Shown here: piece after piece, positions 10,421 to 28,675 of the stretch | Position numbering within the stretch: the stretch's first letter is position 1 | Layout: each line of letters opens with the position of its first letter | Source of the DNA: an uncultured bacterium | Lineage (GTDB): Bacteria > Patescibacteriota > Dojkabacteria > J137 | Direction of reading: 5' to 3' | NCBI GenBank assembly: GCA_963700155.1 | Contig: OY969472.1 | Location: forward strand, 936,690 to 1,000,689 | Length of the DNA: 64,000 bases | Notes under the pieces: generated by a model | Database searches by the model: none | What the model was told of the DNA's origin: nothing | What the model saw: the letters and a program-made list of their open reading frames with translations, nothing else | Position numbers and translations under genes: made by a program

Positions 10421-10488
10421 GTCGTATTTAATTCAAGTATGTACATGCGATTATTAATTATACATCATCAAATTTCTGATGAGATATT

Positions 10489-12050: not shown

Positions 12051-12065
12051 CTTATTCGAGACACA

Positions 12066-12596: not shown

Positions 12597-12689
12597 AAAT
12601 ATAAAATATAAAAAATAAAATAATAAACTAAAAGTTTATTTCATCTTTAATACTGTTCTGGGAATTAACTGAGGCTATAGATAGCAAAA

Positions 12690-12809
12690 ATGGCCTCCCA
12701 GACCAGCGGCTACACCCTTTCGGGCTGCCCTATAAGAGTTTCCCCTTATAGACGTACAGAACGATGCTGACTGGAAAGCCATTCAAACGTTCTGTACGAT
12801 TTTTATTTT
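12690..12809 (+). ncRNA. Candidate structured small RNA or leader. GC-rich segment ending in an intrinsic-terminator-like hairpin (12754..12763 / 12788..12797) plus a T-tract.
   Basis: Local GC about 50% against a 30% background. Stems ctataag/cttatag and gtacagaacg/cgttctgtac are followed by gatttttatttt. No coding ORF on the + strand here. Confidence 0.2.
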
Positions 12810-12945
12810 GATACCATGCCTATATTTGCATATCGGTTTAGGTCTCAGATATTGAATTATAATATAAAGGTGAAATTAACAAAAGTTTTTGGACGATATT
12901 AATAAAGAAGAAGTATAATTCTTAAAATTAAATATAAGCATTAAT

Positions 12946-13953
12946 ATGAAGAAGAAAAACAGTAATCCTACAAAAAGGAATAAAGAAGCTCACATTGATT
13001 TAGATTTGGATAATCCTCAACTTAAGTATGAACTTAATCACCTTAAAGAAGAAAATGAATTGTTTAAAATAGCTGCTTTTGAAGAACTTAAGCGTTTCCA
13101 AGCACAATTTCAATCTATGGCGTTACTGCCAACATATGCAATTACTGAGGCAATCAAGCCGTTGATTGATTTTCAAAATGTCTATTTAAACCAAATTAAG
13201 GAGATGACAGAGCTAGTTCAAAAATCTGTATACAATTCTGGAATTATGCAAATTGTTAGTTCTATTCAAAAATTACAAGTAGGTGCTTTCGCAGGTTTGA
13301 TTATAAACTCCGAAATTGAGAACCAAGTCATCTCATCTAAAAATGGACTTTTTACCACTTCCACCATTAGAAAAGCTAAGCTCACAGCCAGAAGTGAAGT
13401 GGGTATCAATATTGAAAAAAATACTACTACAGAAGTATCTAGTGGTATTTCATATAGAAAATTAGAGACAATTGAAACCAAACTTGAAATTCTAGATGAA
13501 AATATGAAAAGCCTCAGTAGTAAAGATGATTTAAGAATGATTAAGGAAAAGCTAAGTAAACATGATAATTTTTTTGATATGATTCAAGATAATCCATTCC
13601 AATTTTTTAAAATAAAAAAAGTGGATTTTGTTAAAGGATATAGTTATTTTCTAATTAATGGCAATATAAAAGTGATTATTCCTTCAAAAACATTACAGCA
13701 CTATATTTGTGAAGTCTTATTCTCGGGCAAAAAAGATAATATCACTGATGAATGGTTCACAGATGAAATTATTCATGAGTTGAAGTCATTTCTTGGAGTT
13801 GCTGAAATAAAAAGATTAACATGGTCAAAATTAAAAGAGGCAATAATTAATATTAATGAAAAAATAGCCATACAAACTACAAAGCAAGATGTGATAACAA
13901 TACCCAGAGCAGAAATAGCTCAATTAAATTACGAATATTTTTCTCCTAAGTAA
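12946..13953 (+). CDS. Hypothetical coiled-coil protein.
   Basis: ORF only. Confidence 0.4.
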   Translation: MKKKNSNPTKRNKEAHIDLDLDNPQLKYELNHLKEENELFKIAAFEELKRFQAQFQSMALLPTYAITEAIKPLIDFQNVYLNQIKEMTELVQKSVYNSGIMQIVSSIQKLQVGAFAGLIINSEIENQVISSKNGLFTTSTIRKAKLTARSEVGINIEKNTTTEVSSGISYRKLETIETKLEILDENMKSLSSKDDLRMIKEKLSKHDNFFDMIQDNPFQFFKIKKVDFVKGYSYFLINGNIKVIIPSKTLQHYICEVLFSGKKDNITDEWFTDEIIHELKSFLGVAEIKRLTWSKLKEAIININEKIAIQTTKQDVITIPRAEIAQLNYEYFSPK

Positions 13954-13980
13954 GTAAATTCCAGCTAAGCACTTCTACTC

Positions 13981-14007
13981 CAGCCGAACTCGGCTGACCT
14001 TTCTTTC
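13981..14007 (+). terminator. Hairpin cagccgaactcggctg followed by a T-rich run.
   Basis: Perfect 7-bp stem 28 nt after the stop of the 12946..13953 gene. Confidence 0.4.
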
Positions 14008-14041
14008 ATAAAATTTCCTCATAACTTTTAAAAATATAAGT

Positions 14042-14290
14042 ATGAAGAAAGAAGCCCAACATTTTAACACATTCGACCTAAATCTTGCTGCGGTTCTCCT
14101 TGCTAAAGGTTACATTCTTGAACAAGTTCAAAGAAATTCTAATGGCAAATCTCTATTTGTTTTTGATGAGTCAGATGCCTTGAAAAAACTAATAGAAAAG
14201 TACTGGAAAGGGAATCTTAAAATGAATCCCCAAGATGTATTCACAAGCCTAAAGGTCATTAAGAATAGGCTTTACAGCAGTTATTCATAA
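14042..14290 (+). CDS. Small hypothetical protein.
   Basis: ORF only. Confidence 0.35.
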   Translation: MKKEAQHFNTFDLNLAAVLLAKGYILEQVQRNSNGKSLFVFDESDALKKLIEKYWKGNLKMNPQDVFTSLKVIKNRLYSSYS

Positions 14291-14448
14291 ACCTATGGAA
14301 AAGGAGAGTCTTGATAAATTTAAAATTATTTTCAAGAAGGTTTATGGGATAGACCTGAGTGAAGCTCAAGCCCTCGATTTAGCAACTAATTTGCTCAATT
14401 TATATCGGGCAGTCTACAAAGAAAATCTAAATATTAATATTAAAAAAT

Positions 14449-14919
14449 ATGAAAAGGAAATACAATCTACGAAAAATCAAGACTAAAAGGTCTTATACTT
14501 CCGAAGAGCTTGCAGAAACTTTAAAAGTCCATGTTCAAACTGTTCATGACTGGAAAAGAAATGGATTACTACCCCTTGAAGAAAAAACTTCGCCGCATCT
14601 GTTTCTTGGAACTGAAGTTAAAAGTTTTCTTACAAAATTTGTATCTAAGCATAAGGTCTCTCTGAAAGAAGGAGAATTTTATTGTTTATCTTGTAAAAAT
14701 GCAGTGAAACCAACAAGTTTTGAATCAATCAGAAGAGGAATTACCATCGGGAACTCCAGAGAATCGCTCATACTTAAAGCGACTTGTCCAATATGTTCAA
14801 AAGTCGTGCATAGATTTAGTAGTGCTCCATTAATTGCTGAAGCGGAAAAGCACTTAGTTCCTAAACAAATCCGAAAAACAACAGATTTAGAAAAGGATTC
14901 AATTATGCTATTTGACTAA
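14449..14919 (+). CDS. Excisionase/MerR-like HTH (HTH_17-type) protein with a C-terminal Cys4 zinc ribbon.
   Basis: YTSEELAETLKVHVQTVHDWKRNGLLP matches the Xis/AlpA-type HTH. CLSCKN...CPICSK. Lies upstream of a tyrosine integrase. Confidence 0.4.
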   Translation: MKRKYNLRKIKTKRSYTSEELAETLKVHVQTVHDWKRNGLLPLEEKTSPHLFLGTEVKSFLTKFVSKHKVSLKEGEFYCLSCKNAVKPTSFESIRRGITIGNSRESLILKATCPICSKVVHRFSSAPLIAEAEKHLVPKQIRKTTDLEKDSIMLFD

Positions 14920-14951
14920 TAGAAAGTTAATTTATTTTTTATATAAAGTTT

Positions 14952-15386
14952 ATGAGAGCATCAAATTTATTTCAAATTTTGGATTTATCCAAAGACGTAG
15001 TAGCTGAAGTTAATATCTCTGATTTAATTAAATCGGGATTAGTATTGAATGAGGATTATGAGATTAAAAAGGATTTTTTATATAGCCAACCCGTTAAAAA
15101 TGATGGTGTGTTTTCTTTAGATATAACGAGAAGTAACGGTTGGTTTGGAAATATTGAAATACATTTCGCCTTTTTTATTGATACTAGTGAGAGCGATGAA
15201 AATATCCATATATCGCAGGAAGTGAGAATTGTGAAGAATAAAAATGGAAAATTGCAATTTGTTTGTCCAATTTTAGGTGGTGAAAATTTATGCTCAACTC
15301 TCTATTTGAGAAACGATTTTCCACTCTTTGGCTCAGATGAGGGTCTAAATGTGGGTTGGTGGCTAAAAAGTGCTCGAAGAGATTAA
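14952..15386 (+). CDS. Hypothetical protein.
   Basis: ORF only. Confidence 0.35.
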   Translation: MRASNLFQILDLSKDVVAEVNISDLIKSGLVLNEDYEIKKDFLYSQPVKNDGVFSLDITRSNGWFGNIEIHFAFFIDTSESDENIHISQEVRIVKNKNGKLQFVCPILGGENLCSTLYLRNDFPLFGSDEGLNVGWWLKSARRD

Positions 15387-15448
15387 CTAGGTTTTACAAA
15401 GTCCGTTATAACACTCGATTATGAACATTATCTTTTATTACAAATTAT

Positions 15449-16555
15449 ATGGCCAAGAACAAAGCAAAAAACGAAAAAATCAAACGAAAATATTTTGATT
15501 GGTTGCGAGGTGCTGAAGGTTTTTCAGATTTAACAATTGATGCAGTTGAAAAAGCAATCTGGAAATATGAAGAATTTACGAAAGAAGCCGATTATGGTGA
15601 ATTTAATGATAAAGTCGCAACGCAATTCAAAAAATGGCTTTCAACTGCAAAGAATCCAAGAACAGGGAATACTTTATCATTAACATCTCAGTACCATATT
15701 TTAAGGCATTTAAACTCACTTTTTGTGTGGCTTTCTGGGCAGGTCGGGTATAAATCAAAAGTCTCAACTTCTGATATTAGATACTTGAGATTGAGCAAAG
15801 AAGATTCAAGAAAAGCAACAAGTCCTAAACTTCCAAAATACCCTAGTCTTAGCTACATAAAGAAACTTTGCAGTTTTGAAGTTAATGATGAGATGGATAG
15901 AAGAGATAGAGCCTTAATTGCTTTTACAGCACTTTCAGGAATGAGAGATAGAGCAATCATTACTCTACCGATTTGCTGTTTTGATGTTCAAAAATTAGTT
16001 GTTTATCAAGACCCGACCAAAGGAGTTCATACTAAATTTTCAAAATCTATAATTACAACAATATTTAGATTTGATAAAGAACTTTTGGAGTATATTCTTG
16101 ACTGGCAAACGTATTTAACTGAGGAGAAAATGTTTACAGGTGAGAATCCGCTTTTCCCAAGCACACTAATAGAACTTGAGAGTGAAGTTAATCATTCTTT
16201 TGTCGCAAAAGGAGTGGAACCAATCTTCTGGAAAAATGCAGGAGCAATGAGAAAGATATTTCAAAACAGAGCAAAAGAAACTGGGCTGGATTATTTTTCG
16301 CCCCACAAATTTAGGCATTTTGCAATTAACGAAGCCCAGAAGTATGTAAACAATGCCGAAGAATTAAAAGCCGTCAGTCAAAATGTAGGACATGAGAATT
16401 TAACAACAACATTTTTCGGGTATGGAGGAATAGATGACTTCAGGGTTACAGAGATTATCGGTAATATGAACTTTGAGAAAAATAAGTCAAAAAGGAAACT
16501 AGATAAAGACACCATTGAAAAGCTGAAAGATTTATTGAACGAACAAGATGAGTGA
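15449..16555 (+). CDS. Tyrosine site-specific recombinase (phage-integrase family).
   Basis: R-containing box I (SGMRDRAII), HKFRHF (HxxR) and GHENLTTTFFGYGG with the catalytic Tyr. Confidence 0.7.
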   Translation: MAKNKAKNEKIKRKYFDWLRGAEGFSDLTIDAVEKAIWKYEEFTKEADYGEFNDKVATQFKKWLSTAKNPRTGNTLSLTSQYHILRHLNSLFVWLSGQVGYKSKVSTSDIRYLRLSKEDSRKATSPKLPKYPSLSYIKKLCSFEVNDEMDRRDRALIAFTALSGMRDRAIITLPICCFDVQKLVVYQDPTKGVHTKFSKSIITTIFRFDKELLEYILDWQTYLTEEKMFTGENPLFPSTLIELESEVNHSFVAKGVEPIFWKNAGAMRKIFQNRAKETGLDYFSPHKFRHFAINEAQKYVNNAEELKAVSQNVGHENLTTTFFGYGGIDDFRVTEIIGNMNFEKNKSKRKLDKDTIEKLKDLLNEQDE

Positions 16556-16621
16556 TATAAGGTTTATTTATAGAAACTATTGATTTAAAATGTACACATA
16601 TTTAACTCTTAATATAAAGCT

Positions 16622-17365
16622 ATGGAATTGAAAGACAAAGTTGTTTTGATAACAGGCTCTTCGAGCGGAATTGGGAAAGCCATTGCTATTAGATTAGCAA
16701 GTGAGGGAGCGAAGATTGTTATTAACTATAATTCTAACAAGGAAGGTGGGGAATCTACATTAAGTGAGATTCAAAGTTTAGGTAATGAAGGTCTGGTGGT
16801 TCAAGCAGATATTAGTGATGAATCTCAGGCGGAAAATCTAGTAAAAACAGTTATAGATAAGTTTGGAACAATCGATATTCTTGTTAATAATGCAGGGGGT
16901 TATATCGATGGTGATGATTGGAATGGTGAGAGCGAAGCATGGCTTAAAACTTTTCAAAAAAATATTCTTTCTGTAATGAATGTTTCTAAATATGTTCTCA
17001 GAGAATTTATTGAAGCTAAAAAAGGAAATATTGTTAGCATTGCAACAAGATATTCACTTTCAGGTCAATATGATTCACCAGCCTACTCTGCTTCAAAAGC
17101 AGGTATTGTAAATCTAACTCAAGGTTATGCAAAACTACTTTCACCGTTTGGAAGAGCAAATTGCATATCACCTGGAGCTGTAGAAGCTGGTTACTGGCTA
17201 AGAGCACCAAAAGAAGAGCTTGATGAAACTTTGGAAACAATTCCATTTAAAAGATTGATAAGTAAAGAGGAAGTTGCAGAAATGGTTTTTTACCTATCCT
17301 CTGAGCATTCTAAATCTATTACAGGTCAAAATTTTTTAATTGATGGAGGATTTAATTTAAAATAA
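16622..17365 (+). CDS. Short-chain dehydrogenase/reductase (SDR, FabG-like).
   Basis: TGSSSGIGKAIA, NNAG, YSASKAG. Confidence 0.8.
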   Translation: MELKDKVVLITGSSSGIGKAIAIRLASEGAKIVINYNSNKEGGESTLSEIQSLGNEGLVVQADISDESQAENLVKTVIDKFGTIDILVNNAGGYIDGDDWNGESEAWLKTFQKNILSVMNVSKYVLREFIEAKKGNIVSIATRYSLSGQYDSPAYSASKAGIVNLTQGYAKLLSPFGRANCISPGAVEAGYWLRAPKEELDETLETIPFKRLISKEEVAEMVFYLSSEHSKSITGQNFLIDGGFNLK

Positions 17366-17386
17366 TTTAATTTTTAAATAATAGAA

Positions 17387-17872
17387 ATGAATGCAGAGCC
17401 AAATCCAGAACACTTGAGAGAAATTCAAAGAGAGATTGTTTCAGGGCTTATTTTCTCAAAAGATGGGAAACTACTTGTTGGCAAAAAAGACCCGAATAAA
17501 GGTGGTGTATACGCTGATTGTTGGCATATTCCAGGAGGTGGAGTTGATGAAGGAGAAGATAAAATGACCACTTTAAAAAGAGAAATTAGAGAGGAAACAA
17601 ATTTAGATGTTGAGGGAGCTGAGCTTGAATTAGTTGATGATACTGGTCGTGGTTCAACAGAAAAGACATTGAAAGATACAGGTGAAAAAGTATGGTGCAA
17701 TATGAATTTTAATGTGTACAGGGTAAGGTTAAATAGAAATGCTTCTGAGATTGAATTAAATCCATCTGATGATTTAGTTGAATTAAAGTGGGTAGATATT
17801 TCTGAACTTAAGGAGCTTAAGCTAACACCACCAAGTATTGAATTGTTTAAAAGACTTGGATATATAGATTAG
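17387..17872 (+). CDS. NUDIX hydrolase.
   Basis: Nudix box GGGVDEGEDKMTTLKREIREETNL. Confidence 0.75.
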   Translation: MNAEPNPEHLREIQREIVSGLIFSKDGKLLVGKKDPNKGGVYADCWHIPGGGVDEGEDKMTTLKREIREETNLDVEGAELELVDDTGRGSTEKTLKDTGEKVWCNMNFNVYRVRLNRNASEIELNPSDDLVELKWVDISELKELKLTPPSIELFKRLGYID

Positions 17873-17901
17873 AGAATAAAATTTAAAATATAAGTATAAA
17901 T

Positions 17902-19557
17902 ATGCTTCAGGAAAAAGATTTTACAAAAAATAGATATATCCTTTATGCAAGGAAGTCTTCTGAATCTGAAGATAGACAGGTTGCTTCAATAGCATCACAG
18001 ATTGATGCTATGCAAGAGATTGCAAAGGAGTTGAAAATAAAAATTGTTGAAGTGATGAGCGAATCGAGTTCTGGTTTCCATGTAGGTAGGAATGTCTTTA
18101 ATTCAATGGTTGAAAAGATACATAAAGGCGAGGCAGACGGAATCATTGTCTGGAAACTTTCAAGACTATCAAGGAATCCTGATGATGCTGGAAGAATAAT
18201 GGGTATGTTACAACGGGAAGAAATTAAGCATATAAGGACTGTTGATAGAAACTGGTTTCCTGAAGACAATGTAATGATGATGTATGTTGAGTTCGGCGTA
18301 ACAAATCAGTTCAGCCGAGATTTAAGTGTTGATACAAGTAGAGGTTTATTAAAGAAAGCTCAAAGAGGCTGGTCGCCAATCTCTACTCTTCCTCTTGGTT
18401 ATATGCACAGCCCGTATAAGAAGCTAGGCGATGAAGAAATTATCCCTGACCCTGAAAGATTCGAAATTGTAAAAGAAGGTTTAAAACAAGTTGCTTCAAA
18501 TAGACTTACTCCAATGCAGTCCTTAGATTTTGTTTTAGAAAAAGGTTTAAAAACCAGAAAAGGAAAGCCGATAGGTGAAAGTGTGTGGTATCGAATACTC
18601 ATAAATCCTTTCTTTTATGGAACTTTTGAATTTCCGCAGAAAAGTGGAAGATTTTATGAAGGCAAACATACTCAAGCTATAACTCAAGAAGAATATAATC
18701 AAATTCAACATCAACTCGGCAGGAAGGACAGTCCTAGACCTAAAAAATGGTATTTCCCATACACTGGAATGATGAAATGTGGAGTTTGCGGTTGTTCAAT
18801 AATTGCAGACCCTAAATTTAAACATCAAAAGAATGGGAATGAACATGACTATGTTTATTATAGATGTACTAAAAAACGAGGTAATTGCGACCAGAGAAGC
18901 CTCGAAGTTGATGACTTGGAAATACAGTTCACAGATATAATTTCAAATATACGAGTACCTGATGGCTTCCATGAATGGGCAATGGAAGAGCTTCAAAAAG
19001 ACCATCAAAAGGAAATTGTAGAAAGAGGTGAATCTTATGAGAGAGCAAAGGCAAAATACGAGGAAGTTGTTAAAAAGATTGATGATTTAGTTGAGGGCTA
19101 TTTAGGAAAGAAAATTCCAGAAGAAACTTACGATAGAAAGTTGCCTGAATATCAAAAAGAACAGAATATCTTAAAAGGTATTCTTGATAGCTCAGATTTA
19201 AGAATAAAAGAATGGATTAACAAAGCTGATGAAGTTCTTGATTTTGCAACTAAAGCAAAATATGAATTTGAACATGGCGATGATAAAAAGAGAAAAGAGA
19301 TAGTTTCGTTTCTCGGCTCGAACCTCATTTTAAAAGACAGGATACTTAGCCTAGACTTAAAAAAGCCTCTGGAAGTTATTCAATCTGTTTCTGGGGAATT
19401 AAATGTCATTGCTGAAAAGTTCGAACCTCTCAATAGCTCAAATAGCAAAGAAGAATTTAAAGAATTTCTATCTACAAATGTCACATGGGGTGGAATCTGG
19501 GACGAATTTAAGAACTATTTAATTAATACTACTAGCAATTTTGTCATGAGTACCTAA
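17902..19557 (+). CDS. Large serine recombinase (resolvase/invertase domain, recombinase domain, zinc ribbon).
   Basis: YARKSSESEDRQ...SIASQ (catalytic Ser), LSRLSRN, CGVCGCS...YYRC. Confidence 0.8.
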   Translation: MLQEKDFTKNRYILYARKSSESEDRQVASIASQIDAMQEIAKELKIKIVEVMSESSSGFHVGRNVFNSMVEKIHKGEADGIIVWKLSRLSRNPDDAGRIMGMLQREEIKHIRTVDRNWFPEDNVMMMYVEFGVTNQFSRDLSVDTSRGLLKKAQRGWSPISTLPLGYMHSPYKKLGDEEIIPDPERFEIVKEGLKQVASNRLTPMQSLDFVLEKGLKTRKGKPIGESVWYRILINPFFYGTFEFPQKSGRFYEGKHTQAITQEEYNQIQHQLGRKDSPRPKKWYFPYTGMMKCGVCGCSIIADPKFKHQKNGNEHDYVYYRCTKKRGNCDQRSLEVDDLEIQFTDIISNIRVPDGFHEWAMEELQKDHQKEIVERGESYERAKAKYEEVVKKIDDLVEGYLGKKIPEETYDRKLPEYQKEQNILKGILDSSDLRIKEWINKADEVLDFATKAKYEFEHGDDKKRKEIVSFLGSNLILKDRILSLDLKKPLEVIQSVSGELNVIAEKFEPLNSSNSKEEFKEFLSTNVTWGGIWDEFKNYLINTTSNFVMST

Positions 19558-20292
19558 TATCAAATCTACTTGTTTAATCATCTCACTTGGCTGTAAGGAC
19601 ATGTCTTCAACTATTGAAGCAATGTTCTCAATTTCGTTTTCACAATTAAGAACCTTGAGCGATTCCCTAACGGGGACAGTGTTAAGTATTATGTAAGATT
19701 TCTTAATAGAATCTGTCACCTCCATTTGCAATTTGTTATAATTTTTATATAGTTCTCTTAACTCACAATTACTACAAAGACAGTAATCTATAATACAATC
19801 CCTATATCTTTTTTCCTTAAAACATATTACCCCCATTGCTAGGTATGCCTTACCCATCATATACCAATCTGAAGTTCTCATGCCATCTGAGAGCTGTTTA
19901 TTAAGAAGCCCCCACTCAACATCACTATCACTTGCAGGAGAACCAAATCTTTTAGATAATATGTTTTTAATAGACTGGAATTCTTCTCGGTGCTTTATTA
20001 ACTCATCATATGTACCATTGATTTTTGCCCATTCTAATTCCACTTCATCAGTCTGTAACTTGGTTAATGAAAGTTTCTCTTTTGTGTAAGGATGAGTTCT
20101 ACTATATATGTATTTCCCACAATTAGGACATTTTGTTTTAGCTTTAACTACTTTAACTAAAATTGAAGAACAATAAGGACAGATTTTTTGAGAAGATCTA
20201 ATATAATTATCCCCAAACTCACAAGTATTGGATTTATTGACTTTTTTTGTGGTTGAAAAGATTGTATTGACTATCCTCTTTATAATCGCCAT
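19519..20292 (-). CDS. Hypothetical zinc-ribbon protein (CPYCSS...CPNCGK).
   Basis: ORF with Cys4 motif. Confidence 0.4.
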   Translation of the reverse strand: MAIIKRIVNTIFSTTKKVNKSNTCEFGDNYIRSSQKICPYCSSILVKVVKAKTKCPNCGKYIYSRTHPYTKEKLSLTKLQTDEVELEWAKINGTYDELIKHREEFQSIKNILSKRFGSPASDSDVEWGLLNKQLSDGMRTSDWYMMGKAYLAMGVICFKEKRYRDCIIDYCLCSNCELRELYKNYNKLQMEVTDSIKKSYIILNTVPVRESLKVLNCENEIENIASIVEDMSLQPSEMIKQVDLILGTHDKIASSIN

Positions 20293-20306
20293 TAAACTAT
20301 TATGAA

Positions 20307-20573
20307 TTAATTGATTTTTTTAGAGCACCCTTTTTTAATCTCATCATCAGTAAACCCAAACTTTTTTATTTGTTGAATTATCATTTTAACGTAAAATGGA
20401 CCAACATTAGTTGAAATTATTATAAATGGTGGTTGATTTGAATCTTTTTCAGGAGATTTATTCGGATGAATGAATTTGTAGTTATGTTTACCAGCTCCAA
20501 CATCATTAAACCCCAGATTATATAGTAATGATATTAAATTCTTAAAATTTTTTGGAGGGAACTCTGATTTCAC
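20307..20573 (-). CDS. HicA-like mRNA-interferase toxin (YcfA/HicA family), divergent form.
   Basis: NLISLLYNLGF...GKHNYKFIHPNK parallels the HicA LLE..GW...R..GSHH.F.HP pattern. Confidence 0.4.
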   Translation of the reverse strand: MKSEFPPKNFKNLISLLYNLGFNDVGAGKHNYKFIHPNKSPEKDSNQPPFIIISTNVGPFYVKMIIQQIKKFGFTDDEIKKGCSKKIN

Positions 20574-20968
20574 TTTCCAATATATCTAACCTTCTCCTCA
20601 GTCTTAAATATTTTATTACCTAATCCCTCACTGCCAACAGATACAACATCTCCATTCTTATCTTGGACTACAAAGTCTTTAGCAGAGATTCGCTTATTAT
20701 AATAATGTGGAACATCAAAATACACAAAAAGTGCATCTTTTATCCTGTCAGCTATAGATTGACTGTCCGGAGAAAAAACCATAAAGCCAGGTAATGAATC
20801 AGCAATGAGAGTATAACCTGACTCATCTGAATGTACTTTTAAATCCAAATCTACAGGAATTTTTTTTAAGTTTTCCAAATTTAATTCTGGAGGTCTACTA
20901 CGAATATCGTAGTTGACAATTTCATTTAAATCCCTAATGAGTTTTTTGAGGATGAATTTGTAGTACAT
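20570..20968 (-). CDS. HicB-like antitoxin (UPF0150 / RNase H-like fold).
   Basis: ESGYTLIADSLPGFMVFSPDSQSIADRIKDAL matches the HicB GY.A..P.LPGC...G.T.EEA pattern. Overlaps the HicA-like gene by 4 nt. Confidence 0.4.
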   Translation of the reverse strand: MYYKFILKKLIRDLNEIVNYDIRSRPPELNLENLKKIPVDLDLKVHSDESGYTLIADSLPGFMVFSPDSQSIADRIKDALFVYFDVPHYYNKRISAKDFVVQDKNGDVVSVGSEGLGNKIFKTEEKVRYIGK

Positions 20969-21350
20969 GATATATTTAAATTAAGTTATAGATTATATTA
21001 TTATATTGTTTATATGTCCATCTATTAACGATATTATGTTAGAAGAAGAAATGACCATACTTATAGTATATATTATTTTTGATAAAGTTATAAGAATTTC
21101 AGTTTAATCTTTCAAATTTGATGGTAGGTGATCTATTATTATTTGAGTTTTTTCACATATTTGTTATCTAATTTGGGATTCAAAGGCAAATCTTTTTTAA
21201 GTTGATTGGGAGGCACTTTTTAGCTTAAGAATATCGATTTTACGCTTATTTCGTCAAGAAGTTTAAGTATCGTGTATCTTAACTATACGGTACCTTTTAT
21301 AATTTAGCTATACCCCACTTGTGGATATCCCCTATGATTAAACTAGAATA

Positions 21351-21800
21351 TTAATAAAATATGCTATAAGGTAACCCGATATCCCAAGTCCGACTTTCAT
21401 TATCTTGAGCCTCACAAATGAATCTACTATCACCAGTATTCCCATAAATTGTATCTTCAAAGCAGGTGATGTATCCTAAACTAACATAACCTCCATTGGG
21501 AAAATAAATTTCTGTAAATCTGTCACCGTTACTGGCTACCTCAAGAGTGTAACAGTAATTATCTGGGTCATCATGAGGGTAATAGCAAGCCTTCATGGAT
21601 TTTGATCCAGTAAACTTCATTATTTTACTGGGATACTCGGCACCTATTCCAATAAATCCACCCACAGATTGTGAGTATTCATCGTTGGGATTTTTAAACC
21701 CATTTAATGCGTAGATTATGAAAGCAATTATAACTATAAGTACTATTAGATTGATACAACCACCACCGCTTCTCTGCTGTTCAAATTCATTTTCATTCAT
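21351..21800 (-). CDS. Small membrane/secreted hypothetical protein.
   Basis: ORF with an N-terminal TM segment. Confidence 0.35.
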   Translation of the reverse strand: MNENEFEQQRSGGGCINLIVLIVIIAFIIYALNGFKNPNDEYSQSVGGFIGIGAEYPSKIMKFTGSKSMKACYYPHDDPDNYCYTLEVASNGDRFTEIYFPNGGYVSLGYITCFEDTIYGNTGDSRFICEAQDNESRTWDIGLPYSIFY

Positions 21801-21807
21801 AGATTAC

Positions 21808-22410
21808 TCACTTATATAATTCATAACATTTATTTTCTGCTGAAGTTTTACGGTTATCTAATACACTTGCCTCACTTGTTGAAAGTTTGCAATTCCAACC
21901 ATCCGTTTTTTCATATCCATGAGAATCACAATTAGCACTCCAATCATTTTTATAATCTGTATATGCTTTGTCTAAACAATTGTTCAATGCTAATTTATTA
22001 TTATTTACAACATCATGGGTTGTAGTTGTAGGGTAGTAATCTTTTACTCTATTTATAGCCAAAACAACTGTCAAAGCAATTAGAAAGAAAGCAACAAATG
22101 CAATAATCTTTGTGGAATTAGTATTTGAAGATTTTAAAACTAACCATGCAATTAAACCTGCAATACCTCCAGCAATTGTTCCACTCAGAATATCAAGGTG
22201 ACTTATTTGTGATACCAAAGCTATACAACCAATTACAAATATCCAGGAGAAGAATTTCACTACAGAAGATGTTGTATTATTTACTTCCTTATACTTTTGG
22301 TGGTGATCATTTATATTCTCATTCAAAAATTCTCCACAGAATCTGCACTTTATCGCTGACTCTTTAATTTCCTCACCACAATATGGACAAGATTTATATC
22401 CTAGCTTCAT
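21808..22410 (-). CDS. Zinc-ribbon (CPYCGEEI...CRFCGE) membrane protein.
   Basis: ORF with an N-terminal Cys4 and 2-3 TM segments. Confidence 0.4.
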   Translation of the reverse strand: MKLGYKSCPYCGEEIKESAIKCRFCGEFLNENINDHHQKYKEVNNTTSSVVKFFSWIFVIGCIALVSQISHLDILSGTIAGGIAGLIAWLVLKSSNTNSTKIIAFVAFFLIALTVVLAINRVKDYYPTTTTHDVVNNNKLALNNCLDKAYTDYKNDWSANCDSHGYEKTDGWNCKLSTSEASVLDNRKTSAENKCYELYK

Positions 22411-22464
22411 AATATTGTATTAATATATTGGGATTTTACTACTTTGGAATCCAAATATAAAATA

Positions 22465-22890
22465 TTATTTTTCTCGATTTTTGTCTAAGTCTTTATAACT
22501 TATAGTATTAAGTATAAATTGAGTCCCATCTTCACCAGTTACCTCTTTTCTTTGACTATATAAAGACTTTTGTCGTCGTTCTAAGTATTTCCAAGAATCT
22601 TCTACTGAATTTGAATCTATAACTGCTCTCGCAATATTCTTTTTTGAAGCGATGGCAATGAATTGTTTTGCTCTTTCCATACTCTCTGTAAATTCGTCGG
22701 ATTGTTTCTCCCACTCATAATACGTATCTTTACTTATTCCTGAGTATAGACAAGCCTCTTCGACTGTAAAATCATTTCTAAATGCTTCGGTTAAATCCGA
22801 CATTACCCTTTCAGTTAATTTATATGTTGATTGCATTAGTTCTTTTAAAGTTTTGTTTGGTATTCCGTTCATAATATTAGTTGATAACAA
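22465..22890 (-). CDS. HTH-containing small protein, possibly a phage-type regulator or small terminase-like.
   Basis: TVEEACLYSGISKDTYYEW is HTH-like. Weak. Confidence 0.3.
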   Translation of the reverse strand: MLSTNIMNGIPNKTLKELMQSTYKLTERVMSDLTEAFRNDFTVEEACLYSGISKDTYYEWEKQSDEFTESMERAKQFIAIASKKNIARAVIDSNSVEDSWKYLERRQKSLYSQRKEVTGEDGTQFILNTISYKDLDKNREK

Positions 22891-23000
22891 ATACGTATCA
22901 GATGTATTATATCAACAAATTTTAAACTTGCTAAAACTTAAAACAGAAAATATAATTCATTAATAATTAACACTACAATTCCCTGCTTTCTTTTTAAGTA

Positions 23001-23951
23001 GTGTTAGAAGAAGGCGGGGATTTTTATATGAATATTGAAGTTAAGCACGATGATAATTCATTGTTATTAGAAGATTTGACTGACATTACTAAACTTCTAT
23101 ATCAAGACTTTGGAAACAATAAACTCCCAATCTTTTTTGTAGATGACAGTTACTTAATGAACGAAAAAGAGGAAACAAAAGTACTAACTAAAGAAGAATT
23201 AAAGTTCATTAATATTAACTTGCAAAATAATGAAAAATTTAAAGTTTATAATCTAAAATCTCATTATTCACTCTATTATCTAGTGGATTTTGAAATCATA
23301 ACTAGTTATCAGTCGATTAGGAATTACTTAAACCCTCATGATGATTTTTCATTGAGAACTTTACACGAATTCGGAGGCATTTGCTATTACGTCCAGCCGA
23401 ATATAGTTTTATTAAACTGGGCTAATGGCAATTTAATTAATATACTAACTGCGATATCGAAAATAAAGGGAATAGTTAATGAAATAAAATCTGATAGACA
23501 GTTAAAATACACATATGCAATACCTGATATCCTAGGTAGACATAAGTTTCAGATAATAATTGATAAAAATTCTAATAAAATTCTCTTAAAAGGATTGAGT
23601 GAAAGAATATATGACACAAAACTCATATGCGAAGATCAAAATGGTTTAACAACAAAAAATTGCAGATTACTAGAATATCTACGCTTAAATGTGGGAACAA
23701 CAGATACTTTGATCAAAAGAAAAATTATTGATGAGTTAAAAAAGTACAACGAATTTAAAAAAGATATAAAGACTCTCAGGTTCTACTTTAAGGAAATCCG
23801 TGACGCAATTAAAACAATTTTCCAGTTATCCAATGAGGATTATGCTGAATACTTCTTTGATACAAGCGATAAATTCGACTTAATATTAAAATGCGACATA
23901 ATTTATATTGAAAAACTTATTACACCCACTTACACACCCACTCAGAAATAG
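23001..23951 (+). CDS. Hypothetical protein.
   Basis: ORF only. Confidence 0.4.
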   Translation: MLEEGGDFYMNIEVKHDDNSLLLEDLTDITKLLYQDFGNNKLPIFFVDDSYLMNEKEETKVLTKEELKFININLQNNEKFKVYNLKSHYSLYYLVDFEIITSYQSIRNYLNPHDDFSLRTLHEFGGICYYVQPNIVLLNWANGNLINILTAISKIKGIVNEIKSDRQLKYTYAIPDILGRHKFQIIIDKNSNKILLKGLSERIYDTKLICEDQNGLTTKNCRLLEYLRLNVGTTDTLIKRKIIDELKKYNEFKKDIKTLRFYFKEIRDAIKTIFQLSNEDYAEYFFDTSDKFDLILKCDIIYIEKLITPTYTPTQK

Positions 23952-24055
23952 GCTATAACCTCCTGCAGACTTAATAAAATAGTCGTTCACCCACACTTCC
24001 ACCCACTCATCATTTAAAGATATTATCTACACAATTAATTTATCAAGATTTTACT

Positions 24056-24643
24056 GTGCCTGAATATCTAATTGAACTTGAAAATGAACATAAAAGAAGC
24101 TTATTACTTTTGAATAATATGCTATTCATCAACAAGGCTTTCCCTGAAGGTTCAGAAATACTTCGCAGAAATAAAAGAATCTATGAGCAGGAGATAATTC
24201 AATATAAAAATGATTTGGAAAGATCTGTTCTACAAGCAATTATAGATGAGCTCCCACCCGTACAGGTTAAATTGATTCTCTTGTTCAAATATTTAAATCA
24301 ACGATTTAGAGAACTTAGAAATTGTTTACATTTTATTAATTCACAAATGCCACAAACAAAAAATCTGAATAAAACTAAAACAGATTATATTTCAATAAAA
24401 ATTCAGAGGTCTAAGGAAATAGATATAAGAAAGGTTGTTGAATATTTAGGTTTAGAAGTTAAGTCAAATGATATTTTGAGATGTCCTTTCCACCAAGATA
24501 AAACTCCCTCCTTAAAGTTATATAGAAAAGAAAATCGCTTTAAATGTTATGGATGTAATGCATCAGGTGACTCAATAACTTTTGTTAGAAAATTCCAAAA
24601 CGTTGGATTTTTAGAAGCAATAGATTTTATTAATAAATTATGA
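24056..24643 (+). CDS. DNA primase CHC2-type zinc-finger protein (zinc-binding domain only).
   Basis: CPFHQDKTPSLKLYRKENRFKCYGCNASGDSITFV matches the DnaG/phage-primase CHC2 finger. Confidence 0.6.
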   Translation: MPEYLIELENEHKRSLLLLNNMLFINKAFPEGSEILRRNKRIYEQEIIQYKNDLERSVLQAIIDELPPVQVKLILLFKYLNQRFRELRNCLHFINSQMPQTKNLNKTKTDYISIKIQRSKEIDIRKVVEYLGLEVKSNDILRCPFHQDKTPSLKLYRKENRFKCYGCNASGDSITFVRKFQNVGFLEAIDFINKL

Positions 24644-25692
24644 ATGAGGATAGTTACTTTAAAGAAATCCTAGACGAAATCGGAGAATCAACTGAATTGA
24701 AAACCATTGAGTTAGAAGATGTTACAGAAGAAAACGTTAGTTTCTTAGTTAATCCTTATATAGTGAAAAACGGGATCAATCTGATTACTGCACCACAAAA
24801 AAGTTTGAAAAGCATGATCATTCTTTACTTATGCATATGTACTTTAAAAGGAGATCAGTTTTTAGATCATTTCCCAACCGAAAAGATTAATAAGGTGTTA
24901 TTAATTGATCAAGAAAATAGGAAATCTGCAGTTAAAAACAGAACTATAAGATTAGGTTATGAACCTCAAAATATTACCTTAATAGACCAGTATATTTATT
25001 TCGACAAAGATGAAGAAATTACAAATAAACTTATCTCATTAATTAAGGAGAAAGAAATTGACCTAGTAGTTATAGATACACTAAGAAGAACGAATTCTAA
25101 TCTTGATGAAAATTCAAGCAGGGATGTTAATAAATTTTTTGCAAGAATTCAACCCTTAAAAGATTACGCAACAGTAATAATAATTCATCATGAGACTAAA
25201 CCAACACCAATGAATAAAAATACCTATTACAGAGGTTCTGGAGATATCGTTGGTGCTGTAGATAGTCATATCTCATTGAAGAAAGGTGATACAAACAATG
25301 ATTCAGTAAATCTCACTTTGAAGCATGAAAATGCTAGATATTCTCAAGAGAATGAGCCTATAGAAATTAAATTTAACTTTACTGATAAAAGATTTTCTTT
25401 TACTTATAACGGAGATTCTAAAGAAAACTTCATACAAAAATTAGAAGCAGAGAAACAAGAAAGATTAGAAAATTTGCTTCAATTTATTCAAGATTCTGAA
25501 ACTGAAGGCAGAAACATCAAGGAAATAGAGGAATTTTGTAAAAAGAACTTTAATAAAGGAGAACATACAGCAAAGGAATATCGAGATACTTTATTATTAG
25601 GAGGAGCGATTCAAGAACATACAAAACCTTCAGATAAAAAAACATACTTTATTTATACAGATTTTGCACCTCAGCAGAGCAATATACTATAG
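24640..25692 (+). CDS. RecA-like AAA_25/RepA-type ATPase, a mobile-element replicative helicase-like protein.
   Basis: P-loop-like TAPQKSLKS and a Walker B-like DLVVIDTLRR. Translationally coupled to the primase zinc-finger gene. Confidence 0.45.
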   Translation: MNEDSYFKEILDEIGESTELKTIELEDVTEENVSFLVNPYIVKNGINLITAPQKSLKSMIILYLCICTLKGDQFLDHFPTEKINKVLLIDQENRKSAVKNRTIRLGYEPQNITLIDQYIYFDKDEEITNKLISLIKEKEIDLVVIDTLRRTNSNLDENSSRDVNKFFARIQPLKDYATVIIIHHETKPTPMNKNTYYRGSGDIVGAVDSHISLKKGDTNNDSVNLTLKHENARYSQENEPIEIKFNFTDKRFSFTYNGDSKENFIQKLEAEKQERLENLLQFIQDSETEGRNIKEIEEFCKKNFNKGEHTAKEYRDTLLLGGAIQEHTKPSDKKTYFIYTDFAPQQSNIL

Positions 25693-25842
25693 ATGTGAGG
25701 TGCTGAGGAGAAGAAATATATGTCTGAAGAATCTAAAAAGGAAATAATAGAATTCTTAAAATTATTATCTGATATACTTGCTGATCAAATTAAAAGAGGT
25801 GTTTATGTTTAACTTCTTACTAATTTTATATATAATCTTATT

Positions 25843-25940
25843 GCTATAACAAGTTAATGACGAATTTATTAAACGGGTATCCAGATACATGAGTTCGTCT
25901 CTTGTTATAGCACTGGATGCCCGTTTATTTTTTACTTTTA
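25843..25940 (+). terminator. Interleaved inverted repeats forming a terminator-like hairpin (25871..25884 / 25913..25926 plus T-tract). A second 11-bp inverted repeat (25843..25853 / 25901..25911) overlaps it in A-C-A'-C' order.
   Basis: Seen directly. Lies immediately upstream of the second serine recombinase. Confidence 0.4.
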
Positions 25941-25944
25941 GTTC

Positions 25945-27444
25945 ATGTATAACAATTCATACTTCTTATATTGTCGAAAATCTAGTGAGGATAGTAGACA
26001 GGCTTTATCAATACCTGCTCAACTTAGAGAACTCAAAGAATTTGCAGTTAAAAATGATTTAAGAATCATTAAAACCTTTCAAGAAGAGAAATCAGCACGA
26101 ATACCTAACAAAAGAAAAGAATTTAATGAAATGCTTTATCAAATTAAACAAGGCAAGGCAACTAAAATTTTGTGTTGGCATACAAATAGGCTAAGTAGAA
26201 ACCCTCAGGAATCTGGTGTACTTCAGCAAATGATAACTGATGAAACTATTGAGGAGATAAGAACTCCATTTGAAACAATCACCAAAGACACAAATGATGT
26301 TATGCTCGGTGTGTCTTTCGGTGGCAATTCACAATACTCAAAAGAGTTAAGTTACAACACTAAACGTGGAATGAGAGAAAAAGCCTATCGTGGTGAATGG
26401 TTAACTGGTGCTCCACCCTTTTATATTAACTTTGGAGATAAAAAAGGTTCAAAGAATATAAAACCAGATCCAGAGACTTCAAAATTTTATCTCCCATGGA
26501 TTCGTAGAATTATAAAAGAACGTTTAACCACTCGAGAAGCAACAAGGGTACTTAGGGAACTTGGTGTTCGTGCAAAATCAAATAAATTCTACTCAAGCTC
26601 AATGGTGCAAAGATTATTAAGGAATCCAATGTATTATGGTCTTCTACAATATGGAGATATAGAGAAGATTGGAACTTGGGAACCATTAATTGATAAATGT
26701 ACTTGGGACGATCTTCAAATGGTATTAGACAATAGGACAAAACCATATTTCACAAAGCATAATCATGCATATAGTAAATTAATAAAATGTAGTGATTGTG
26801 GTGGCTTTTTGATCGGTGTTACTAAAACTAAGAAGAGCGGGAAATCTTATACTTATTATTCGGTTAATAAATCAAATCATCCTGAATGTAAATGTCTGCC
26901 AATCAAAGAAATGGATCTTGATGAACTTTTTTGTAATGACATTGAAAAGCTTGAGATGTCAGAAAGTCAGGCTGAAACTATTCGTGAATATACAATCAAA
27001 AGATTAGAAGGAGATAAAACAAGTAATTCATTTGTAAAAATACAATATGACAAAGAAATTGCCGAAGTAAATGAAAATTTAGATGGATTATTAAAATTAA
27101 GACTGGCTGAGGAAATAACAAAAGAAGATTACAAATTAAATAAATCTAAGAATGAAATGAGGCTCTCTGAGCTTGAAGAACTTATCAGAGATTTAAACTT
27201 AAATCGGAGTGAGTTCAGAAATGAGGTGGAACTAATTCTAGAAGATTGTCTGATCGTTAAAAAAGTATTTGAACATGGTAATAATGAAGAAAAACGAAGA
27301 ATTGTACTTCAAATTACACAAGATATTTCATTTGATGGAAATTCGATTCGGTGGAACTTCAAAAAGCCTTATCAGACAATGGTAAAATTCAAAAATGAAC
27401 CTAAAAGTGAAAACTGGGGTGGTCGGTGGGGCTCGAACATTTAG
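25945..27444 (+). CDS. Large serine recombinase (second copy). The last 8 codons are encoded by a tRNA-His-derived 3' fragment.
   Basis: LYCRKSSEDSRQ...IPAQ, HTNRLSRN. The 3' end overlaps tRNA-like sequence ggtggtcggtggggctcgaac. Confidence 0.8.
   Translation: MYNNSYFLYCRKSSEDSRQALSIPAQLRELKEFAVKNDLRIIKTFQEEKSARIPNKRKEFNEMLYQIKQGKATKILCWHTNRLSRNPQESGVLQQMITDETIEEIRTPFETITKDTNDVMLGVSFGGNSQYSKELSYNTKRGMREKAYRGEWLTGAPPFYINFGDKKGSKNIKPDPETSKFYLPWIRRIIKERLTTREATRVLRELGVRAKSNKFYSSSMVQRLLRNPMYYGLLQYGDIEKIGTWEPLIDKCTWDDLQMVLDNRTKPYFTKHNHAYSKLIKCSDCGGFLIGVTKTKKSGKSYTYYSVNKSNHPECKCLPIKEMDLDELFCNDIEKLEMSESQAETIREYTIKRLEGDKTSNSFVKIQYDKEIAEVNENLDGLLKLRLAEEITKEDYKLNKSKNEMRLSELEELIRDLNLNRSEFRNEVELILEDCLIVKKVFEHGNNEEKRRIVLQITQDISFDGNSIRWNFKKPYQTMVKFKNEPKSENWGGRWGSNI
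27417..27438 (-). pseudogene. 3' fragment of a tRNA-His paralog: T-loop TTCGAGC, T-stem CCCAC, acceptor 3' strand CGACCAC, discriminator C, CC.
   Basis: The acceptor 3' strand is exactly complementary to the 5' fragment at 27573..27623. It lies within the recombinase C-terminus. Confidence 0.5.
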
Positions 27445-27462
27445 AGATGGCATATCCTGTTA

Positions 27463-27538
27463 GGGGTGGACAGTGGGGCTCGAACCCACGACAACTCGCT
27501 CCACAGGCGAGCGCTCTACCAACTGAGCTATGTCCACC
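27463..27538 (-). tRNA. tRNA-His (anticodon GTG) with a genomically encoded G-1 and no encoded CCA.
   Basis: Manual fold: G-1, acceptor GTGGACA/TGTCCAC, D arm GCTC-AGTTGGTA-GAGC, anticodon loop CTGTGGA, T arm GTGGG-TTCGAGC-CCCAC, discriminator C. Confidence 0.85.
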
Positions 27539-27572
27539 CCTAACAGGACATTAAGTACTAATAACTTTTATT

Positions 27573-27623
27573 CACGACAATCCCGATTAATCGGGACGCT
27601 CTACCAACTGAGCTACGACCACC
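27573..27623 (-). pseudogene. 5' fragment of a tRNA-His paralog: G-1, acceptor, D arm, an anticodon arm replaced by the perfect palindrome TCCCGATTAATCGGGA, variable region. The T arm is missing.
   Basis: About 85% identical to the intact tRNA-His 5' two-thirds. Ends at TTGTCGTG, then unrelated sequence. Confidence 0.5.
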
Positions 27624-27730
27624 ATCAATTTAGCTCTGTAATTATATCATCTAATATCCCCATAAATAAACCATTATAGGAGCTAAATAACTTACAAAAT
27701 GTTAGAATACATCATCATTATTAAACATTT

Positions 27731-28675
27731 ATGTTCAGAGATAAAGTAAAACTAAAATTTAAAGCAGGAAAAGGCGGAAATGGTATAGTCGCATATAATA
27801 AAGGTCGAATCCCGTATGGAGGTAGTGGTGGTGACGGAGGTGATGTTTATTTAGAAGGTTCTTCTAAGATATATGACTTGAGTTTTATTAATCAAGACTC
27901 AACCATTTCCGCCGAAGATGGGGCACCAGGTGGAATAAAAAATCTTCAAGGTAAAGATGGAAAAGATTTAATATTTAAATTGCCTTTAATAACACATGTC
28001 ATGGATTCCAATGGAAGATTAATCATGACATTAGATAAAGATGGTGAAAAAAAACTTTTGGAAAAAGGTGGCAAAGGAGGTCAAGGTAATTTTATGTTTA
28101 GACATGGTGTAGAGAATCATTCTAAGTCTACTCCTGGAATGTCCGGACAAGAATTAGATATTTCATTAAATCTGGAACTTTATAGTGATATTATTTTTAT
28201 TGGATTCCCTAATGCAGGCAAATCCTCTATCTTGAATGCCATTACTAACGCAAATTCAAAAGTTGCTTCTTATGCTTTTACGACTCTCGATCCTATTTTA
28301 GGGAGACTAAAAGGCATTACTTTGATGGATTTGCCAGGATTAATTGAAGGAACAAGCGAAGGTAAAGGACTTGGAACTAAGTTTGTTAAACATACAAAAG
28401 CTTCAAAGTTAGTGGCTCATGTAATTAGCTTAGAATCAGAAGATGTTAAGGTTGAATATACAAAAATGCGAGAAGAATTAAAAAGGATAGATCAATCTCT
28501 TTATGATAAGCCGGAAATAATAATTCTATCTAAATCAGATTTAGTTGATCCTGACAAAGTAAAGTCTTCAGTTAAAGCTTTAAAAAGTCTTAAAAAAGAA
28601 ACTCTTGTCTGCTCTGTGTATGATTATGACTCTTTAGAGCTTCTAAAAAAACTACTAGAAACACAGCTTTCCTAA
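27731..28675 (+). CDS. obg: Obg-family GTPase (short form).
   Basis: Gly-rich Obg fold KGGNGIVAYNKGRIPYGGSGGDGGDVY. G1 GFPNAGKSS, G3 DLPG, NK.D-like SKSD. Confidence 0.75.
   Translation: MFRDKVKLKFKAGKGGNGIVAYNKGRIPYGGSGGDGGDVYLEGSSKIYDLSFINQDSTISAEDGAPGGIKNLQGKDGKDLIFKLPLITHVMDSNGRLIMTLDKDGEKKLLEKGGKGGQGNFMFRHGVENHSKSTPGMSGQELDISLNLELYSDIIFIGFPNAGKSSILNAITNANSKVASYAFTTLDPILGRLKGITLMDLPGLIEGTSEGKGLGTKFVKHTKASKLVAHVISLESEDVKVEYTKMREELKRIDQSLYDKPEIIILSKSDLVDPDKVKSSVKALKSLKKETLVCSVYDYDSLELLKKLLETQLS

Follow-up and report, generated by a model that had tools for sequence, protein, structure and literature searches.

The 64,000-nucleotide stretch analysed here (hereafter the window; contig OY969472.1, positions 936,690 to 1,000,689) raises the question of how three recombinase genes of two classes came to lie together beside a single gene for tRNA-His. 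An initial annotation flagged positions 12946 to 27444 as an integrative-element-like module, possibly made of nested or tandem elements, and neither an obvious prophage nor an integrative and conjugative element (ICE). Our analysis indicates that the flagged region is probably the tRNA-proximal part of a genomic island of approx. 25 kb (from about 2597 to 27624), anchored at tRNA-His in a Dojkabacteria-like chromosome of the candidate phyla radiation (CPR), and that this island has grown by successive site-specific insertions, with E1 and E2 as two separate integrative elements. The Obg protein encoded in the window is nearest to those of Dojkabacteria. The reading of nested or tandem elements linked to tRNA-His, and of neither phage nor conjugative nature, gains support from the overlap of a whole recombinase family with tRNA genes, from four repeats of the tRNA 3' end, from a second locus with two elements in tandem, and from a syntenic relative without the elements.

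The units of the island are delimited by four junction repeats, J1 to J4, that have 35–48 nt in common. All of them lie on the plus strand and, besides the tRNA itself, they are the sole matches of the nhmmer profile in the 64 kb. J1 (2597–2644; beginning TGGGGTAGAACATGG; E=2.5e-11), J2 (4427–4474; E=1.3e-8) and J3 (19486–19526; TGGGGTGGAATCTGGGACGAATTTAAGAACTATTT; E=1.1e-6) are decayed copies of the tRNA-His 3' end, and J4 (27415–27456; E=0.004) comprises the 3' part of an older, outer tRNA-His gene (27417–27440, with the CCA) plus 16 nt. J1 is the distal limit of the island within the window, and J3 is the junction between E1 and E2. The order of the units is U1 (2645–4426), a unit spanning 4475–19485 with the large serine recombinase (LSR) gene LSR1 at its end, and E2 (19527–27414), which ends in LSR2. 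Four same-strand copies of a tRNA-His 3' fragment are characteristic of repeated insertion at a single tRNA gene, the earlier 3' fragment being displaced each time; the locus thus has an integrase at the tRNA-side end, partial-tRNA repeats at the unit borders and tandem accretion, as tRNA-anchored elements do. In another locus, L167, two LSR elements are likewise in tandem at tRNA-His, and the tail of the distal LSR is not tRNA-encoded and resembles that of LSR1.

Both LSRs were predicted in the initial annotation, and both matched hidden Markov models of three domains: Resolvase (PF00239; 1.4e-20 for LSR1, 17902–19557, and 1.3e-18 for LSR2, 25945–27444, both on the plus strand), Recombinase (PF07508) and Zn_ribbon_recom (PF13408). 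They are 27% identical to each other and belong to different subfamilies, both of which occur at tRNA-His; a Y-x-R-K-S motif is invariant in LSR1, LSR2 and 31 homologues. The last nine codons of LSR2 (WGGRWGSNI, followed by the stop codon) are the antisense of the tRNA-His 3' end at 27417–27440, and the complete tRNA lies 19 nt past the stop codon. The C-terminal sequence of LSR1 (WGGIWDEFKNY...) likewise corresponds to the antisense strand of the decayed tRNA-His 3'-end copy at 19486–19526, its final ~24 codons crossing J3 into the left end of E2. LSR1 is 41–57% identical to LSRs that overlap tRNA-His or tRNA-Asn genes; its nearest relatives are those of L126, L091, L027, L013, L007 and others, many of them also at tRNA-His or tRNA-Asn. 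The homologues of LSR2 form a close set with 40–48% identity and a much larger one with 27–35%, the nearest being the tRNA-His-linked genes of L003, L004, L165 and L169.

This overlap is a property of the family. From genome and metagenome collections 160 LSR loci were taken, in 124 of which the end of the open reading frame (ORF) lies within the contig. The LSR stop codon falls inside an antisense gene for a tRNA or for transfer-messenger RNA (tmRNA) in 90 of these 124, with overlaps of 9–154 nt; for 44 of these 90 loci, the encoded CCA corresponds to a Trp codon of the LSR. The overlapped genes include those for His, Ser, Glu, Gln, Asn, Arg, Trp, Pro, Gly, Ala, Val, Ile, Met, Tyr and Leu tRNAs and tmRNA, and homologues of LSR2 often end in peptides such as WGGRWDSNPRPPLPQRGALTN, which are translated tRNA antisense. 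Genes of the LSR1 type and of the LSR2 type are each found alone at tRNA genes in many genomes. The closest phage LSRs in INPHARED are at most 26% identical, and matches to PDB sequences cover the catalytic domain only. A further, independent pairing was seen in L171 (16231–17928), a Dojkabacteria-like locus whose Obg is 64% identical, where a 544-aa resolvase-domain gene overlaps tRNA-His ~6 kb from Obg.

Presence or absence in related genomes was one of the checks that the initial annotation called for. L170, the closest relative on record (Obg 77% identical), is collinear with positions 2593–4478 of the window (88% nucleotide identity) and with 27588–37506. The collinear blocks are separated in L170 by 2.3 kb, containing two unrelated ORFs and no LSR, against 23 kb in the window, so E1 and E2 are insertions relative to a syntenic genome, in a comparison that is between species. 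L170 also carries junction repeats of the same kind: J1 is kept at 5370, the synteny on that side stops at J2 (window 4478), and a solo copy at 4696–4730 is 94% identical to J3 over 35 nt. U1, which L170 shares (5366–7253, 88% nucleotide identity), encodes on the minus strand an ArsP permease, a thioredoxin and ArsR (Pfam). In both genomes the cluster is bracketed by two 48-nt direct repeats, ~88% identical, and it is probably an old integrated unit.

The tRNA gene at which the island is anchored has an unusual structure. A functional tRNA-His(GTG) (27463–27537, minus strand; ARAGORN and Rfam), also present in L170, has its acceptor stem lengthened by 10–14 bp of flanking inverted repeats (27455–27548) and lies within the remains of another tRNA-His gene. 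The 5' part of this outer gene, read on the minus strand from 27624 to 27573, has a TATAAT box ~20 nt upstream and comprises G-1, the acceptor strand GTGGTCG, an intact D arm, a 16-nt perfect palindrome (TCCCGATTAATCGGGA) at the position of the anticodon arm, and then TTGTCGTG, the start of the T stem. The order on the tRNA strand is therefore TATAAT, outer 5' part, 24-nt spacer, complete tRNA-His(GTG), 16-nt spacer and outer 3' part (GTTCGAGCCCCACCGACCACC-CCA), the acceptor strand of which forms a perfect pairing with that of the 5' part. Taken together, these segments fold as a tRNA within a tRNA-like frame (z = -6.8).

The same nesting is found in L170 (9484–9770), where a 10-nt direct repeat (GTCGTGGGTT) flanks the insert and the anticodon arm of the outer pseudo-tRNA-His is almost wholly deleted. 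As L170, which has no LSR, shares it, the nesting is neither an assembly artefact nor a by-product of E2. In the more distant L175 (Obg 70% identical), the corresponding position upstream of Obg is occupied by a simple tRNA-His that encodes its CCA and whose body is identical to that of the inner tRNA of the window, so the nested form is derived. From these sequences, it appears that a complete inverted-repeat-flanked copy of tRNA-His was inserted in the T arm of the old gene, and that the old gene decayed and kept its promoter and its 3' end, from which the island grows. We had considered that the 132-bp insert (27441–27572), with its P-arm-like motifs, was what remained of a third element, inserted later than E2; this idea was dropped in view of the nested gene of L170 without an LSR and the simple ancestral gene of L175. 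Searches of viral collections with the inverted-repeat-flanked tRNA end gave two chance matches in portal genes, and none with the outer palindrome.

Several side observations touch on this structure. The outer D loop of L170 contains a 71-nt structured insertion (9690–9760, tRNA strand) with 7-bp terminal inverted repeats and a CCCCGGAGGGG hairpin. In L021 (2626–2710 and 11574–11755), tRNA-His halves 1–34 and 34–72 lie around a 9-kb LSR element that has its own tRNA-His with an 11-bp flanking inverted repeat, and in L035 (1609–2088) a split tRNA-Pro with a complete replacement copy has a similar nested layout. In these two loci and in L026 (3477–3671), host tRNAs are split at the anticodon or T loop with a complete replacement tRNA beside the LSR; structured inserts of 46 and 127 nt were seen within displaced tRNA fragments of such loci. 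In the window, Logan short-read contigs (ERR11571143) end at 27444, the LSR2 stop codon, and start at 27581, at the outer palindrome, that is, the assembly graph branches or breaks on both sides of the tRNA; these breaks could come from shared tRNA k-mers or from population heterogeneity.

In addition to LSR1, E1 carries a Xer-like tyrosine recombinase (15449–16555, plus strand), as the initial annotation had proposed for a tyrosine integrase. It matches PF00589 (1.4e-9; 38.4 bits versus a cut-off of 27.1), the HKFRH residues and a terminal GY are readable, and in NCBIfam it is nearest to XerA, XerC and XerD, far under the equivalog cut-offs. In L126, which holds the nearest relative of LSR1 (57% identical), a gene for a 66%-identical tyrosine recombinase lies directly upstream of the LSR, and L012 has the order helix-turn-helix (HTH) gene, tyrosine recombinase (36% identical to that of the window) and LSR. 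Because its homologues lie directly upstream of LSR1-type genes in these two loci, the tyrosine recombinase is part of E1 and not a third element. The count of three recombinases of two classes holds. From the same adjacency it follows that the SDR (16622–17365) and NUDIX (17387–17872) genes, both on the plus strand and borne out by Pfam as had been annotated, are cargo inserted between the two recombinase genes.

Upstream of this pair, E1 has further rightward genes (12946–15386, plus strand; Pfam): an uncharacterised 335-aa ORF, a DUF5659 gene (14042–14290), a small ORF (14295–14486), a gene for an HTH_17/zinc-ribbon protein (14449–14919) and another uncharacterised ORF (14952–15386). Homologues of these genes lie upstream of LSR genes in L012, L013, L015, L044, L067, L131 and L162, the DUF5659 gene and the small ORF recurring upstream of LSR1-type genes; comparison of 12946–13953 with the ORFs at the same position in L012 and L013 gave no homology. 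The protein at 14449–14919 had been called an excisionase-like HTH protein: the HTH_17 match exists, at 23.6 bits, which is under the 27-bit cut-off, and its homologue in L012 scores 27.1 bits. Among the genes of E1, none was recognised as serving replication.

E1 also contains a small RNA gene of the LOOT family (RF03000; 12685–12844, minus strand). The Rfam match covers 12708–12844 and model positions 1–121 with 53.8 bits (cut-off 46.4), and on the 3' side there is an intrinsic-terminator-like hairpin that runs from 12705 to 12691. Rfam detected LOOT in 9 LSR1-type loci and in none of 4 LSR2-type loci, its relatives scoring 72–90 bits. Our own covariance model, built from the Rfam-detected LSR1-type hits and run on ~165 loci, gave 64.9 bits for the copy in the window and found LOOT in 19 loci, always 2.1–6.3 kb upstream of the LSR gene. 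Among the 35 loci with an LSR score of 350 bits or more against LSR1, 13 have LOOT, or 13 of 27 once only those with enough upstream sequence are counted; in the 130 remaining loci it occurs 6 times, five of them in loci with the next most LSR1-like recombinases. LOOT was noted in the window and in L007, L012, L013, L015, L023, L027, L034/L041, L042, L059, L089, L090, L093, L094, L105, L110, L138, L152 and L162. LOOT thus looks like a component of the LSR1-type family of mobile elements.

Where E1 begins depends on this RNA and on a repeat that is missing. The initial annotation placed a candidate left boundary at 12600–12950; a repeat of the tRNA-His 3' end was sought there and none was found. 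Since LOOT belongs to E1, the element reaches at least to 12685. Moreover, given that there is no junction repeat between 4427 and 19486 and that genes extend left of LOOT in related elements, E1 may be 15 kb long or a composite; its start is either at ~12.6 kb or at 4475. The distal block in question (4475–12596), which is not in L170, encodes a CN-hydrolase, a SAM methyltransferase, two C5 methyltransferases with a BpuJI-like endonuclease, AbiV and a membrane protein (Pfam), and is either cargo of E1 or an older unit with a lost junction. The 15-kb version would include the BpuJI-type restriction-modification genes and AbiV. Within the block, two C5 cytosine methyltransferases stand around a BpuJI-N/NOV_C endonuclease, followed by the AbiV HEPN protein (7012–12050). 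An exact protein look-up of the ORF at 12066–12596, to the left of LOOT, returned no record.

E2 differs from E1 in carrying a putative replication module (23001–25692, plus strand; Pfam and PHROG primase families). This consists of an uncharacterised 316-aa ORF (23001–23951), without a match in a PDB sequence search, a CHC2 protein (24056–24643) and an AAA_25/RepA-like ATPase (24640–25692). The latter two, annotated from the start as translationally coupled, were both identified by Pfam and their ORFs overlap by 4 nt. The CHC2 zinc finger occupies residues 120–192 of its protein and is the only recognisable part of it; the ATPase shares 24–28% identity with RepA-like or primase-helicase proteins of phages. 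Neither tandem-repeat nor promoter scans revealed an iteron-type origin above background in the region.

The leftward genes of E2 (19519–22410, minus strand) include one for a zinc-ribbon protein (19519–20292), a pair annotated as HicB-like (20570–20968) and HicA-like (20307–20573), a gene for a membrane protein (21351–21800) and one for a zinc-ribbon membrane protein (21808–22410). Of the Cys4 zinc ribbons noticed earlier, the one at 21808–22410 is detected by Pfam, and CxxC pairs are readable in 19519–20292 and in the E1 protein at 14449–14919. The HicA/HicB pair gained no support: neither ORF has a match in Pfam (E≤0.01), NCBIfam, PHROGs or PDB sequences, the sole trace being HicA_toxin (PF07927) with E=0.1 and 13.2 bits versus a 27-bit cut-off, with no HicB match, and the AlphaFold single-sequence models had pLDDT values of 51 and 42 and were unusable. 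After five sequence libraries and two structure predictions, this identity is still unsupported. Next to these genes, an ORF at 22465–22890 (minus strand) encodes an HTH protein resembling small terminase subunits (TerS), with matches to phrog_4102 (4.4e-14) and seven other TerS PHROGs, and a weak one to GP3_package in Pfam. The earlier statement that no capsid or terminase is recognisable therefore stands for the capsid and not for the terminase, in view of these eight families. For capsid, portal, tail and large terminase, no ORF gave a match in Pfam or PHROGs. E2 has an integrase, a putative replication module and a TerS-like gene that may serve in packaging; neither a repressor nor a link to a helper was found in it.

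These data are consistent with the following mechanism. Each LSR would recombine the 3' portion of the tRNA-His gene with an attP extending across the 3' end of the LSR's own coding sequence, and each newcomer would insert between the tRNA and the resident element, leaving behind a copy of the tRNA 3' fragment (J1–J4). The LSR reading frame at the tRNA-proximal end of each of the two elements enters the antisense tRNA-His 3' sequence, with the CCA read as Trp. As attP would lie in the 3' coding end of the LSR, the C-terminal tail should vary with the context, being encoded by the tRNA, by a newcomer or by attP. After excision, E2 probably replicates by means of the RepA-like ATPase and the CHC2 zinc-finger protein, and a helper phage may package it by way of the TerS-like protein, in a satellite- or tycheposon-like manner. 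In E1, the Xer-like enzyme may serve in the resolution of multimers or as a second recombination route, either of which seems more likely than that it marks a third element. The cargo of E1 would comprise SDR and NUDIX and, possibly, restriction-modification and AbiV defence.

Some observations weigh against this interpretation. As judged from sequence, the candidate crossover positions differ, lying near the CCA, at the T loop or further 5': the similarity between the window and L170 stops exactly at the CCA (27417), the repeat of L004 is 13 nt long and covers only the 3' strand of the acceptor, and the repeats in other LSR loci start at the T loop or the anticodon loop. The junction repeats, in turn, share 35–48 nt, and an att identity of such length is unusual for serine integrases, for which no recombination directionality factor was identified here. 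Neither a circular or excised form nor an empty site within the species was seen, and the evidence of absence comes from another species, L170. The nhmmer search of the 64-kb window gave no junction repeat at the left end of E1 near 12.6 kb nor anywhere between 4427 and 19486, and the G+C content is ~31% throughout, without a compositional step at the flagged region, so that the island has the composition of its host. With regard to E2, the CHC2-only protein is without a recognisable TOPRIM (or AEP) domain, relatives of LSR2 are absent from the IMG/VR viral contigs, there are no capsid genes, and the satellite idea depends on one TerS-like ORF.

The missing repeat bears on whether the ~23 kb from 4475 to 27414 could be a single composite element that moves as one, with LSR1 and the tyrosine recombinase as internal passengers or accessories, e.g., as a directionality or resolution system. 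That L170 lacks the entire 23 kb at once, and that LSR1 is still an intact ORF, would also agree with this. Nevertheless, we consider it unlikely, since at 19486 a bona fide junction repeat, J3, lies exactly at the end of the LSR1 ORF, its 94%-identical solo copy occurs in L170 in another context, genes of the LSR1 and LSR2 types are each found alone at tRNA genes in many genomes, and L167 is an independent tandem of two LSRs.

Even less probable is that the locus is a decayed prophage or an inactive fossil island with immobile or domesticated recombinases. The TerS-like ORF, the G+C content indistinguishable from that of the host, the decay of J1–J3 and the fact that no excised form was seen could be taken in its favour; however, no ORF matches a capsid, portal, tail or large terminase family in Pfam or PHROGs, none of the three recombinase ORFs is truncated and all keep their catalytic motifs, the elements are missing from the nearest relative, and the closest phage LSRs do not exceed 26% identity. 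The Logan contigs break at 27444 and at 27581, flanking the tRNA, which might in turn suggest that the nested tRNA beside LSR2, and hence the fusion of LSR2 with the tRNA, is an assembly artefact of repeated tRNA sequence. This is very improbable, given that L170, another species assembled independently, has the same nesting, that a similar layout exists at tRNA-Pro in L035, and that LSRs run into tRNA genes in 90 independent loci. We therefore retain the successive insertion of separate elements at tRNA-His as the preferred reading.

By analogy, the closest concept for this island appears to be that of the tycheposons of Prochlorococcus, small cargo elements with a recombinase and a primase/helicase that reside at tRNA/tmRNA genes, accumulate there one behind another and leave tRNA fragments (Hackl et al., bioRxiv 10.1101/2020.12.28.424599). 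Some tycheposons resemble phage-inducible chromosomal islands (PICIs) with terS, and a large serine recombinase serves in 27 of 937 (Hackl et al., bioRxiv 10.1101/2020.12.28.424599). The likeness is one of layout and gene content, i.e., the tRNA-side integrase, the putative replication module, the tandem stacking and the terS-like gene; on the other hand, the host here belongs to the CPR, E1 and E2 both have serine recombinases with ORFs overlapping the tRNA, and E1 also has a Xer-like tyrosine recombinase and LOOT. PICI-type satellites combine an integrase, a primase/replication module and a small terminase subunit. E2 resembles them in having an integrase, a putative replication module and a TerS-like gene in ~8 kb, and differs in that genes for capsid remodelling, a repressor or helper sensing were not recognised, the viral contigs (IMG/VR) yielded no relatives, and there is no known helper phage.

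The locus also resembles the classical tRNA/tmRNA islands (Williams 2002; Islander), in which the target is split, the 3' part is supplied by the element, and the displaced fragment is found at the far end; breakpoints recur in both at the anticodon loop, the T loop and the 3' end. One passage of the Islander paper describes tDNA integration as "catalyzed by tyrosine integrases" (PMC4383910). In contrast, the catalysis is assigned here to large serine recombinases. Such enzymes are usually described as targeting protein-coding genes, and phiC31, Bxb1 and A118/LI are examples of phage large serine integrases. The LSRs described here have the same three-domain architecture as the phage enzymes, but differ in their low identity (≤26%), in their tRNA/tmRNA targets and in an apparent att similarity tens of bases long. 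Among the serine integrases of streptococcal ICEs, those that target rumA are known to have att within their own gene (PMC4701971), a feature that the LSRs here would share. The locus is a variant of tRNA-anchored integrative elements, which the overlap of LSRs with tRNAs, the association with LOOT and the nested tRNA-His set above an ordinary island.

Outside the island, two other features of the window were recorded. A 239-nt inverted repeat (28805–29043 and 31733–31971; 71% complementary) links a DUF5667 gene (28751–29452) with an opposite 301-aa ORF (31279–32184), the two being diverged paralogues that flank a ferric-reductase gene, an arrangement also present in L170. At 38001–39214, 1 kb has 52% G+C in a 31% genome and includes a gene for a 319-aa secreted protein (38255–39214, minus strand) without a Pfam match, possibly a recent acquisition.

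The kind of system is familiar, and several of its details look undescribed. In open-access text, where a prior description may have been missed, we found no account of an LSR clade dedicated to tRNA/tmRNA genes, of a link between LOOT and LSRs, or of a nested tRNA-His. We tentatively propose, at slightly under an even chance, that three features are jointly new: a widespread clade of LSRs dedicated to tRNA/tmRNA genes (in CPR, Elusimicrobiota, Omnitrophota, Planctomycetia-labelled and other metagenome-assembled genomes), with att inside their own last codons and a C-terminal tail that is swapped by integration or displacement; LOOT as a conserved part of LSR1-type elements; and a working tRNA-His that is an inverted-repeat-flanked copy in the T arm of the old gene, whose 3' end now serves as the landing site, a "disrupt-and-replace" arrangement that separates the target from the essential gene. 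If this is true, a clade of serine integrases with tRNA/tmRNA targets would widen the natural set of attB sites to ones that are conserved and present in every genome. The link with LSRs would be the first genomic context for LOOT, an orphan RNA motif, and makes its function testable, with copy control, excision control and immunity as candidates. The nested tRNA-His, in turn, suggests a route by which hosts or elements may uncouple an essential tRNA from an integration hotspot. The mobile elements of CPR bacteria are poorly known, and this locus provides a worked example of how an island grows, together with an empty-site relative and ~160 related loci.

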